DNA from: Basidioascus undulatus
Taxonomy: Eukaryota
DNA length: 36,595 bases
NCBI GenBank assembly: GCA_000826855.1
Contig: JTLS01000126.1
Location: forward strand, 1 to 36,595
Direction of reading: 5' to 3'
The position numbers were made by a program, and so were the translations under genes. This document shows positions 7,160 to 9,097 of the stretch, piece by piece. Below the pieces are notes generated by a model. It searched no databases. It saw only the letters and a list, made by a program, of their open reading frames with translations, and had not been told where the DNA came from. How positions within the stretch are numbered: position 1 is the stretch's first letter; every line of letters begins with the position of its first letter.

Positions 7160-9097
7160 ATGCCTCCCAAGAAGGCTGCGGAGCCCGAGAAGAAGCTGCG
7201 CCTTGGTCGGCCCGGCAACAACCTGGTATGTCTTGAGACCTTGCGCATTCTATGACGGAGACTGGGCTGACGAGCTCGTTCTTCTCTCTTGCAGAAAATG
7301 GGCATTGTAGGTGGGTTGCAGCAGTCTCAGTCGAGCTGCTTGACTGATGAAGGCTTACGCCGGACCCGCAGGCCTGCCCAACGTCGGCAAGTCTTCGCTC
7401 TTCAACATCTTGACCAAGTGTGATCTTGGCAAGGCCGCCAACTTTGTACGTTTTCCTCCATGGTAGATCGGAGACGGGTCGTTGAGAATTGTTTCTGTCG
7501 CAGCCCTACGCCACCATCGACCCCGAAGAGTCCCGCGTCATTGTCCCCGATCCCCGTTTCGACTGGCTGGCCGACCTCTACCAGCCCTCCAACCGCGTCC
7601 CTGCTTTCCTCACCTGCATCGATATCGCCGGTTTGACCGCAGGCGCGTCCACTGGCGCGGGTCTCGGTAACGCCTTCTTGTCGCATGTGCGCGCTGTCGA
7701 CGGTATCTTCCAAGTCGTTCGTACGTCTCTTCTTCCATTTGTCTGTGCATATGGACGCAGGCTGAGCGACGGTGGCGGTGCAGGTGCGTTCGACGACGCG
7801 GAGGTCATTCACGTCGAGGGCGACGTCAATCCCGTCCGCGACATGGAGATCATCCAGACGGAGCTGCGGTTGAAGGACATCGAGTGGCTCGAGAAGCAGA
7901 TCGAGACGTCCAAGAAGGTCGCCCGCTCCGCCAACGCCACCACCCTCGCTGGCAAGGCCAAGCAGGAGGAGCTGGTCAGTCGCTCTGACTGGGGCAAGTC
8001 CACGGCGGTCTGCTGACGACGTCTTTTTGTGAACAGCTGACGCAACAGAAGGCGTTGGAGATCCTGGTGGGCAAGCCGGAGGAGGGCGTGCCCGGGAAGG
8101 ATGTGCGCAAGCACGACTGGAATGCGAAGGAGGTGAGTCAGCGTCTTCGGTTACTGGTATGGTCATTCCGCATGGCCGGCCGTGCACCGCATGGTGGGAG
8201 TAGCGCTCCCTTTCCTTAGAGGATGACAAAGAGCGTAAAGCTCGACTTTAACCCAGCTCGTCGAAAAAGACCGGAGTAACGCCCAGGTCTATGAGATTAT
8301 AATCTGTCTGATTCCATTATTCGCCCTTCGCGATCGATCGGCTTCCGTCGCAGCAATGCCCTGCTGTCCAGTGCACACGATGCTGACACGTCGTCTACGT
8401 GTGAACAGGTCGAGGTCATCAACCAGCTCAACCTCCTGAGCTCCAAGCCCATCCTGTACCTCGTCAACCTGTCCGAGCGTGACTACGCGCGTAAGAAGAA
8501 CAAGTGGCTGCCGAAGATCAAGGCGTGGATCGACGAGAACAACCCGGGCGACCTCCTCATCCCGTTCTCGGTCGCGCTCGAGGAGCGCCTGTCCCAGCTC
8601 GACGAGGCCGAGCAGGCCGATGCGCTCAAGGCGCTCGGCGAGGAGCACAAGACCACCGTCGCGCCCTGCCTTGGCAAGATCACCAAGGCCGGCTACGACG
8701 CGCTCAACCTCCAGCGATACTTCACCTGCGGTCCCCAGGAGGTCCGCGCGTGGACCATCCAGGCGGGCACCAAGGCGCCCCAGGCCGCCGGTGTCATCCA
8801 CTCCGACTTCGAAAAGAAGTTGTGCGTTGTTTCTTTACCTGCCTTTCTGGTCCGCCTCGCGCTCACGGTCATGGGTGGCATCTACAGCGTCTGCGGTGAC
8901 ATTATGGCCTTCGAGGACCTGAAGGAGCTGGGCAACGAGTCCGCCGTCAAGGCGGCGGGCAAGCTGAGGCAGCAGGGCAAGCCTTACGTGATGAAGGGTG
9001 CGTCCATCTTCGCCTCCTACCGCCCTGCGGTCCAGTAGCTGACGACCTCGCTGGGTATACAGACGGCGACATCGCTCACTGGAAGGCGGGAGCATAA
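7160..9097 (+). CDS. OLA1: Obg-like ATPase 1 (OLA1/YchF), multi-exon
   Basis: Spliced product [35 protein letters not shown] (G1)...NF-PYATIDP (G2)...DIAGL (G3)...[15 protein letters not shown]...YLVNLSE (G4)...[14 protein letters not shown]...[15 protein letters not shown] (TGS-like)...[10 protein letters not shown]. Canonical GT-AG introns, including a 16-nt exon (7295-7310) and a 276-nt intron (8133-8408). Confidence 0.96.
8220..8311 (+). ncRNA. Intronic box C/D snoRNA, snR69-like (predicted guide for LSU rRNA C equivalent to yeast Cm2948)
   Basis: C box AGGATGA 8220-8226; antisense element AACCCAGCTC(G) 8250-8260 complementary to conserved LSU (U)GAGCUGGGUU; D'-like TCGA 8261-8264; C'-like CTATGA ~8289-8294; D box CTGA 8308-8311; lies in the only long OLA1 intron. 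Confidence 0.75.

Follow-up and report, generated by a model that had tools for sequence, protein, structure and literature searches.

An intron-encoded box C/D snoRNA of the Afu_304 family in the OLA1 gene of Basidioascus undulatus

One intron of the YchF/OLA1-type ATPase gene of Basidioascus undulatus is four times longer than the others, and the question that this locus raises is what the additional sequence contains and what it might do. The gene is in the window, the whole stretch of 36,595 nucleotides of contig JTLS01000126.1 (GenBank assembly GCA_000826855.1) that was analysed, and its structure is summarized in Table 1. Four closely similar splice combinations remain open across it, all of them with the intron at 8133–8408 or a variant of it that ends six bases later. 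In the preferred model there are eight introns of 69, 61, 58, 63, 62, 276, 66 (or 69) and 65 nt, such that the seven besides intron 6 span 58–69 nt; a sequence-only reading of this DNA had similarly given 276 nt for intron 6 and about 60–70 nt for the others, and the gene model agrees with it. The identity of the host gene is well supported, with the exon at 8409–8819 matching Pfam YchF-GTPase_C (E 8e-17) and two exons matching NCBIfam TIGR00092 (YchF), and the best solved relatives of the exons are 1NI3 (YchF), 2OHF (GTP-binding protein 9), and 7Y9I and 5EE0 (both Obg-like ATPase 1).

Removal of intron 6 is evident at the RNA level. In a 158-nt contig from a soil metatranscriptome (an RNA library from one study), position 8130 is followed directly by 8407, leaving out a stretch of exactly 276 nt that is bounded by GT..AG; 81 letters of the contig fall on one side of the junction and 77 on the other, five letters differ from the window, and its source may be a close relative and not the same strain. 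Contigs of two public sequencing runs, both compared with the window as contigs and with only small word shares (0.12 and 0.10), confirm five of the eight OLA1 introns with GT..AG ends. Within intron 6 the contigs of both runs give no cover, and are uninformative either way on the snoRNA described below. Read-through translation of a retained intron 6 meets three in-frame stops, and a branch-site-like CTGAC is at 8383–8387. A simple explanation for the length of the intron is that there is a snoRNA inside it.

The organization of this snoRNA is shown in Table 1. The C, D′, C′-like and D boxes, the two hairpins and the guide that had been picked out from the letters alone are all present where they were placed. 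The class is recognized by a C box (RUGAUGA) close to the 5′ end and a D box (CUGA) close to the 3′ end, and the window snoRNA has both with a single deviation in the C box. It is also recognized by an antisense element of at least 10 nt that abuts D or D′ on its 5′ side and whose fifth base from the box faces the target; here this is an 11-nt guide, as tested on E. coli 23S rRNA. The arrangement is of the splicing-dependent intronic type, in which a spliced intron carries a single snoRNA in sense orientation, tens of nucleotides upstream of the branch site and the 3′ splice site. Box C/D snoRNAs accumulate as stable small RNAs to which fibrillarin, Nop56, Nop58 and Snu13 are bound, and in this family it is the Aspergillus member that has such support, from cDNA and northern analysis. 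There is also an internal C′/D′ pair, UCGA and AUGAGAU, both of which are degenerate and are bridged by a stem; the D′ and C′ boxes of snR69 are likewise described as degenerate in the available portions of published papers. No convincing terminal stem flanks the C and D boxes of the window snoRNA, and intron 6 as a whole does not fold better than its shuffles (z −1.47).

Table 1. Positions in the window of the OLA1 gene, its sixth intron and the parts of the snoRNA within it
Feature	Position	Strand	Description
YchF/OLA1-type ATPase host gene	7160..9097	+	nine exons, from splice combinations that stay open
OLA1 exons	7160–7225, 7295–7310, 7372–7445, 7504–7720, 7784–7974, 8037–8132, 8409–8821, 8888–8997, 9063–9097		
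Intron 6, snoRNA host	8133..8408	+	276 nt, phase 0, GTGAGT at 8133, CAG end at 8408
Box C/D snoRNA	8215..8316	+	~102 nt; ends placed by inference 5 nt beyond the C and D boxes
C box AGGAUGA	8220..8226	+	G for U at position 2; both GA dinucleotides present
Hairpin 1 GAGC-GUAAA-GCUC	8231..8243	+	between C box and guide; arms 8231–8234/8240–8243
D′ guide AACCCAGCUCG (DNA AACCCAGCTCG)	8250..8260	+	G8256 opposite target C; directly 5′ of D′
D′ box UCGA	8261..8264	+	register as in the Rfam snR69 consensus
D′–C′ hairpin GACC...GGUC	8269..8289	+	arms 8269–8272/8286–8289; encloses block GGAGUAACGCCC (8273–8284)
C′-like box AUGAGAU	8291..8297	+	degenerate
D box CUGA	8308..8311	+	97 nt before 3′ splice site, 75 nt before branch-like A8386

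Comparison of the whole 36.6-kb window with Rfam on both strands gives a sole match at the gathering level, to Afu_304 (RF01511, box C/D), at 8216–8315 on the + strand (44.6 bits against 35, E 1.4e-4), and the alignment covers model positions 1–107 of 107. A permissive Rfam scan of 501 nt (8000–8500) additionally aligns only snosnR69 (RF00475) at 28.4 bits against a gathering score of 50 (E 0.011), with AACCCAGCUC-N-UCGA, the guide and D′, matching column for column. SNORD35 gives no match at E up to 10 in the scan of 8000–8500, and the SNORD35 relationship that had been proposed is rejected for this reason. The sequence-only reading had called the RNA snR69-like and pointed to the snR69 and SNORD35 models for comparison; the guide and D′ are indeed those of snR69 and the snosnR69 model does align, but below its threshold, and the curated family is Afu_304. 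Because the snosnR69 threshold is not reached, the window snoRNA is filed as a member of Afu_304 and not of snR69, and is predicted to work like snR69. Our own covariance model, R1, gives 71.7 bits at the window snoRNA, its sole match in the window.

The target of the guide was examined on the 23S gene annotated in E. coli K-12, which stood in for the organism's own LSU rRNA. The reverse complement of 8250–8259 is unique in E. coli 23S, at 2576–2585, and the eleventh guide base pairs too, with 8250–8260 fully complementary to 2575–2585. G8256, the fifth base upstream of D′, is opposite C2579 of E. coli 23S, the C of GAGCUGGGUU, exactly as had been proposed by application of the D+5 rule. We take the E. 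coli C2579 site to be yeast C2948, on the basis of rRNA numbering and of the earlier reading. The guide of yeast 25S Cm2948 is given as snR69 in the available portions of the literature, where this methylation is also described as substoichiometric and helicase-dependent. The stretch before the D box shows no conservation in 39 aligned copies of the snoRNA (see below) that would point to a second guide, and we therefore regard the window snoRNA as a single-guide RNA.

To place the snoRNA among its relatives, related loci were fetched via the protein exon downstream of intron 6, and not via the RNA. Among metagenome contigs there were 468 pattern matches, 151 of which encode a relative, and the best 80 (46–72% identity) were kept. 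The exact guide 9-mer occurs 46 times in 38 of these 80 loci (the best 80 of 151), always on the coding strand and just upstream of the matched exon. An alignment (A1) of 39 distinct copies, including that of the window, was extracted by the exact guide 9-mer together with box patterns and is the basis of the covariance model; we note that these extraction rules themselves account in part for the lack of variation among the 39 copies in the guide 9-mer, in CUGA and in the GA dinucleotides of the C box. Across 81 sources the model gives 49 matches, all on the + strand, of which 48 are distributed over 39 loci and the remaining one is that of the window. Only two copies are outside the extraction rules and need the model to be found (one in L037 and the third copy in L079), and the substitutions in their guides are all transitions by which G-U pairs are retained.

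The snoRNA is in the same phase-0 intron in 39 of the 80 loci (the best 80 of 151), and the conservation of boxes and guide in orthologous OLA1 introns, which had been suggested as a check, is borne out in these. The number of independent lineages is smaller than 39, because many of the loci are near-duplicates (L038–L042, and L022, L023, L029, L031 and L032). The 3′ splice site precedes the same codon in each of the 40 sequences examined, and the distance to it from the end of the D box has a median of 71.5 nt (44–198) over these 40, a range that includes the 97 nt of the window. The guide 10-mer is exact in the 39 distinct copies. Their D′ boxes have U, followed by C (26 copies), U (11), A (1) or G (1), followed by G and A, and in the C′-like core at least 90% of the copies retain each of three residues, the G and the A after the first U and the A two places further along.

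The 41 loci without the snoRNA (among the best 80 of 151) fall into three groups. Thirty-two have no intron at the site, being spliced transcripts or genes that lack this intron, three have less than 70 nt of upstream sequence, and six have a short intron of 44–74 nt. In the short-intron loci (L035, L036, L060, L065, L069 and L072) the model finds no copy in the fetched flanks, and judging from these sequences the snoRNA may have either moved or been lost. In L047, L049 and L050, on contigs of ~4.7 to 27 kb, OLA1 is in one unbroken frame with all 405 residues and no snoRNA nearby. These three would fit lineages that are poor in introns, in which the family member is known from other locations.

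The deviation in the C box is pertinent to whether the window snoRNA is active. One explanation is that it is a decaying or inactive copy of the Afu_304/snR69 RNA, in which the G at C-box position 2 blocks binding of the core proteins, with the methylation either lost or guided elsewhere. AGGAUGA in place of RUGAUGA could be viewed in this way, as could the weaker C boxes of the closest relatives (AGGACGA in L010 and AGGAGGA in L008) and the assignment of the equivalent site in N. crassa to another snoRNA, CD27, in the available part of PMC2780460. However, the guide, D′, D, both C-box GA dinucleotides and both helices are intact, and among the 39 copies C-box position 2 is occupied by U (30 copies), G (5) or C (4), with both GA dinucleotides in 39 of 39, as extraction required. 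A residue other than U is present at this position in nine of the 39 distinct copies and the guides of all nine are perfect, including those with G (the window, L004, L008, L010 and L064), a pattern that fits tolerance. Moreover, a perfect 11-nt guide has been kept as the adjoining intron sequence diverges freely, which is unexpected for a decaying copy. We read a non-U at C-box position 2 as probable tolerated variation and not as decay, and consider an inactive copy to be improbable. In the two closest relatives of the window by OLA1 identity the C boxes (L008:1383–1389 and L010:116–122) have also lost the U at position 5. All else is intact in the snoRNAs with these AGGA-type C boxes, in the window as in L008 and L010.

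The helices provide evidence that is separate from the boxes. In hairpin 1 all of the cells (100%) are paired among the 39 copies, and three of the four pairs change on both sides (AU/GC, GC/UA/AU and CG/UA/GC). The outer stem of the D′–C′ hairpin is compensatory in relatives at three of three pairs (GGC/GCC, GGA/UCC and GAC/GUC). Over all helices in the 39 copies, 92.7% of cells are paired and eight of the 11 pairs have changes on both sides. Slid controls pair at 39–49%, and in a test with 500 shuffles the observed value is unmatched on four measures out of five and is reached by 4 of 500 on the fifth (further pair types).

Conservation of this type could in principle reflect a cis-acting intron element that governs OLA1 splicing or expression, resembling a snoRNA and having no guide role in trans. 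The strict tie to one intron of one gene and the constrained position relative to the 3′ splice site are what such an element would predict. However, the strongest conservation is in the rRNA-complementary stretch beside D′, for which there is no cis reason, and family members elsewhere behave otherwise, with that of Aspergillus accumulating as a discrete small RNA (according to the available part of PMC2377427) and that of Candida albicans listed in a non-genic intron in the accessible part of a supplement. OLA1 does not need the element, because six loci have a short intron that lacks it and 32 are intron-less (among the best 80 of 151). A cis element with no guide role is therefore very hard to reconcile with these data, and we regard it as less probable still than decay. 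The alternative that box C/D motifs, short and degenerate as these are, are matched in a long intron merely by chance is refuted by the match at the curated Rfam threshold (E 1.4e-4 for the whole window), by covariation, and by recurrence in 39 of 80 independently fetched loci (the best 80 of 151), and its probability is negligible.

The window snoRNA is thus, in our view with high confidence, an intron-encoded box C/D snoRNA that is the counterpart of Afu-304 and takes the role that snR69 has in yeast. Direct support comes from family membership, the anatomy of boxes and guide, the rRNA match in the bacterial stand-in, removal of the intron, and conservation with covariation. The Rfam match and the conserved boxes and guide uphold the earlier proposal of an intronic guide with non-canonical boxes, with its function in the cell predicted from sequence. 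As to expression, processing route, protein binding and methylation in B. undulatus, we infer the following pathway. The snoRNA would be transcribed within the OLA1 pre-mRNA and be bound by the box C/D core proteins while in the intron; after intron 6 is spliced and debranched, exonucleases would trim it to the protein-protected C/D ends and the RNA would be released. The guide 5′ of D′ would then form ~11 bp with the LSU rRNA stretch equivalent to E. coli 23S 2575–2585, and the methyltransferase would modify the ribose of the C facing the fifth guide base upstream of D′. This C would be the equivalent of E. coli C2579, reported as Cm2948 in yeast, Cm2925 in A. fumigatus and Cm2906 in N. crassa.

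The closest described relative is Afu-304 of A. fumigatus, which was cloned in 2008 (two clones, 106 nt, with a 95-nt northern band; Jochl et al. 2008, PMC2377427). The available part of that paper gives its location as 'Intron 2 (sense); Afu1g09800' and its predicted target as Cm2925 of A. fumigatus 26S. Both Afu-304 and the window snoRNA are box C/D RNAs of ~100 nt that sit in sense orientation within an intron of a protein-coding gene and have a predicted target in the LSU peptidyl-transferase region, and both have the order C box, hairpin, AACCCAGCUCGUCGA guide with D′, D′–C′ hairpin, C′ and D. There are differences, in that C-box position 2 is G in the window, where the block GGAGUAACGCCC is moreover the insert in place of the CCUC/GAGG hairpin of the Afu_304 consensus. 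The best Afu_304 scores among the fetched loci are those of L033 (59.4 bits) and L034 (53.7 bits), in both of which the snoRNA is in the second intron of the OLA1 orthologue. This position fits 'Intron 2', and by analogy Afu1g09800 may be the OLA1 orthologue of A. fumigatus. The sequence-only reading had left it undecided whether OLA1 had been reported as a host: publication of Afu-304 in intron 2 of Afu1g09800 is a partial answer, with the equation of that locus tag with OLA1 being a matter of fit.

No fungal snoRNA host named OLA1 or YchF was found in the literature searched, and the snoRNAome supplement, outside that search, may list one; the terms snR69, OLA1 and host gene are absent from the main text of 'The fungal snoRNAome'. 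Mention of Afu1g09800 was found only in the 2008 paper, and no paper was found for AFUA_1G09800 or Afu_304. Yeast snR69 and the window snoRNA have in common the guide core AACCCAGCUC, placed immediately before a D′ of the UCGA type, and hence the target register. The S. cerevisiae snR69 gene is independently transcribed. In the accessible part of a supplement, snR69 of both Candida albicans and Lodderomyces is listed in a 'non-genic intron', and not in OLA1. In N. crassa, the intron-encoded Nc CD27 is listed as the guide of 26S Cm2906, with snR69 given as the yeast and fission-yeast homologue in the available part of Liu et al. (2009, PMC2780460), where host genes are not named. CD27 nonetheless differs from the window snoRNA, being an 85-nt snR71 homologue that is credited with both Am2904 and Cm2906, and not an snR69-type RNA of its own.

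The window snoRNA is real and deeply conserved, and it is ordinary in kind, because it belongs to a described family and a routine Rfam scan finds the new member; its consistent association with a single OLA1 intron adds modestly to what is known. For annotation, this is an example of a snoRNA gene that would be missed by protein-based pipelines and is caught by a routine Rfam scan. A guide for the catalytic centre of the ribosome is here carried in the gene for a ribosome-associated ATPase, as it is in 39 of 80 loci (the best 80 of 151), and hosting by OLA1 would tie supply of the guide to a translation-related promoter. Because the yeast methylation is described as substoichiometric and helicase-dependent, in the portions of the literature available, snoRNA copy number and host linkage could matter.

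Copy number does vary among the relatives. In six loci there are tandem units of intron plus snoRNA in two or three copies (L080:1885–2500, L066:760–1333, L073:1740–2157, L074:2085–2500, L077:30–442 and L079:440–1076), each unit consisting of a 5′ splice site, the snoRNA, a branch-like CTGAC or CTGAT, a pyrimidine run and YAG. In nine of nine inter-copy spacers the YAG is followed directly by GTGAAT, GTAAAT or GTGATT (YAG/GTRNNT). Such YAG/GT junctions between units therefore imply zero-length exons and recursive splicing, as far as can be judged from sequence. Among the 32 intron-less loci there are no same-species transcripts for the multi-copy loci at at least 88% identity across the junction.

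There are precedents for junctions of this type. Zero-length-exon splicing is described for SPNCRNA.445/snoRNA61 of S. pombe (bioRxiv 10.1101/226894) and zero-length-exon junctions for snoRNA clusters of Candida and Debaryomyces (PMC5033589), as given in the available parts of those reports. As in the multi-copy OLA1 relatives, a 5′ splice site begins immediately after a 3′ splice site, which gives each snoRNA its own intron. In contrast, the S. pombe, Candida and Debaryomyces hosts are non-coding and carry different snoRNAs, whereas OLA1 is a coding host with tandem copies of one snoRNA. We tentatively suggest that the pairing of this snoRNA with the OLA1 phase-0 intron is old, widely kept in filamentous fungi and their relatives and undescribed as such, and that in several lineages its tandem units lead to recursive splicing in a coding gene with more than one guide copy per transcript; this is a possibility to which we give somewhat less than even weight. 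The tandem units would in any case be a natural setting in which to study zero-length-exon splicing where the host is protein-coding.

Two smaller features of the alignment are also of note. RNAalifold proposes a pairing of the C-box core UGAUGA with the guide end plus D′ (UCGUCG), that is, of A1 columns 7–12 with 58–63, or window 8221–8226 with 8258–8263. None of its six pairs changes on both sides and it was rejected as a helix; the complementarity of the C box with the guide and D′ is probably a coincidence of two independently constrained motifs, to judge from the aligned copies. The second is the 12-nt block GGAGUAACGCCC (window 8273–8284; A1 columns 85–96). Its pairing with E. coli 23S does not stand out from that of shuffles, which equal or exceed it at a rate of 0.124 for sites no more than 200 nt from the target and of 0.33 for the complete 23S. 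The block is the same in most copies despite varying flanks, is GGGGUCACGCCC in L004, L038 and L045, and is either absent or swapped for unrelated hairpins in L006, L011, L026, L033, L034 and L064; a small hairpin can be drawn within it.
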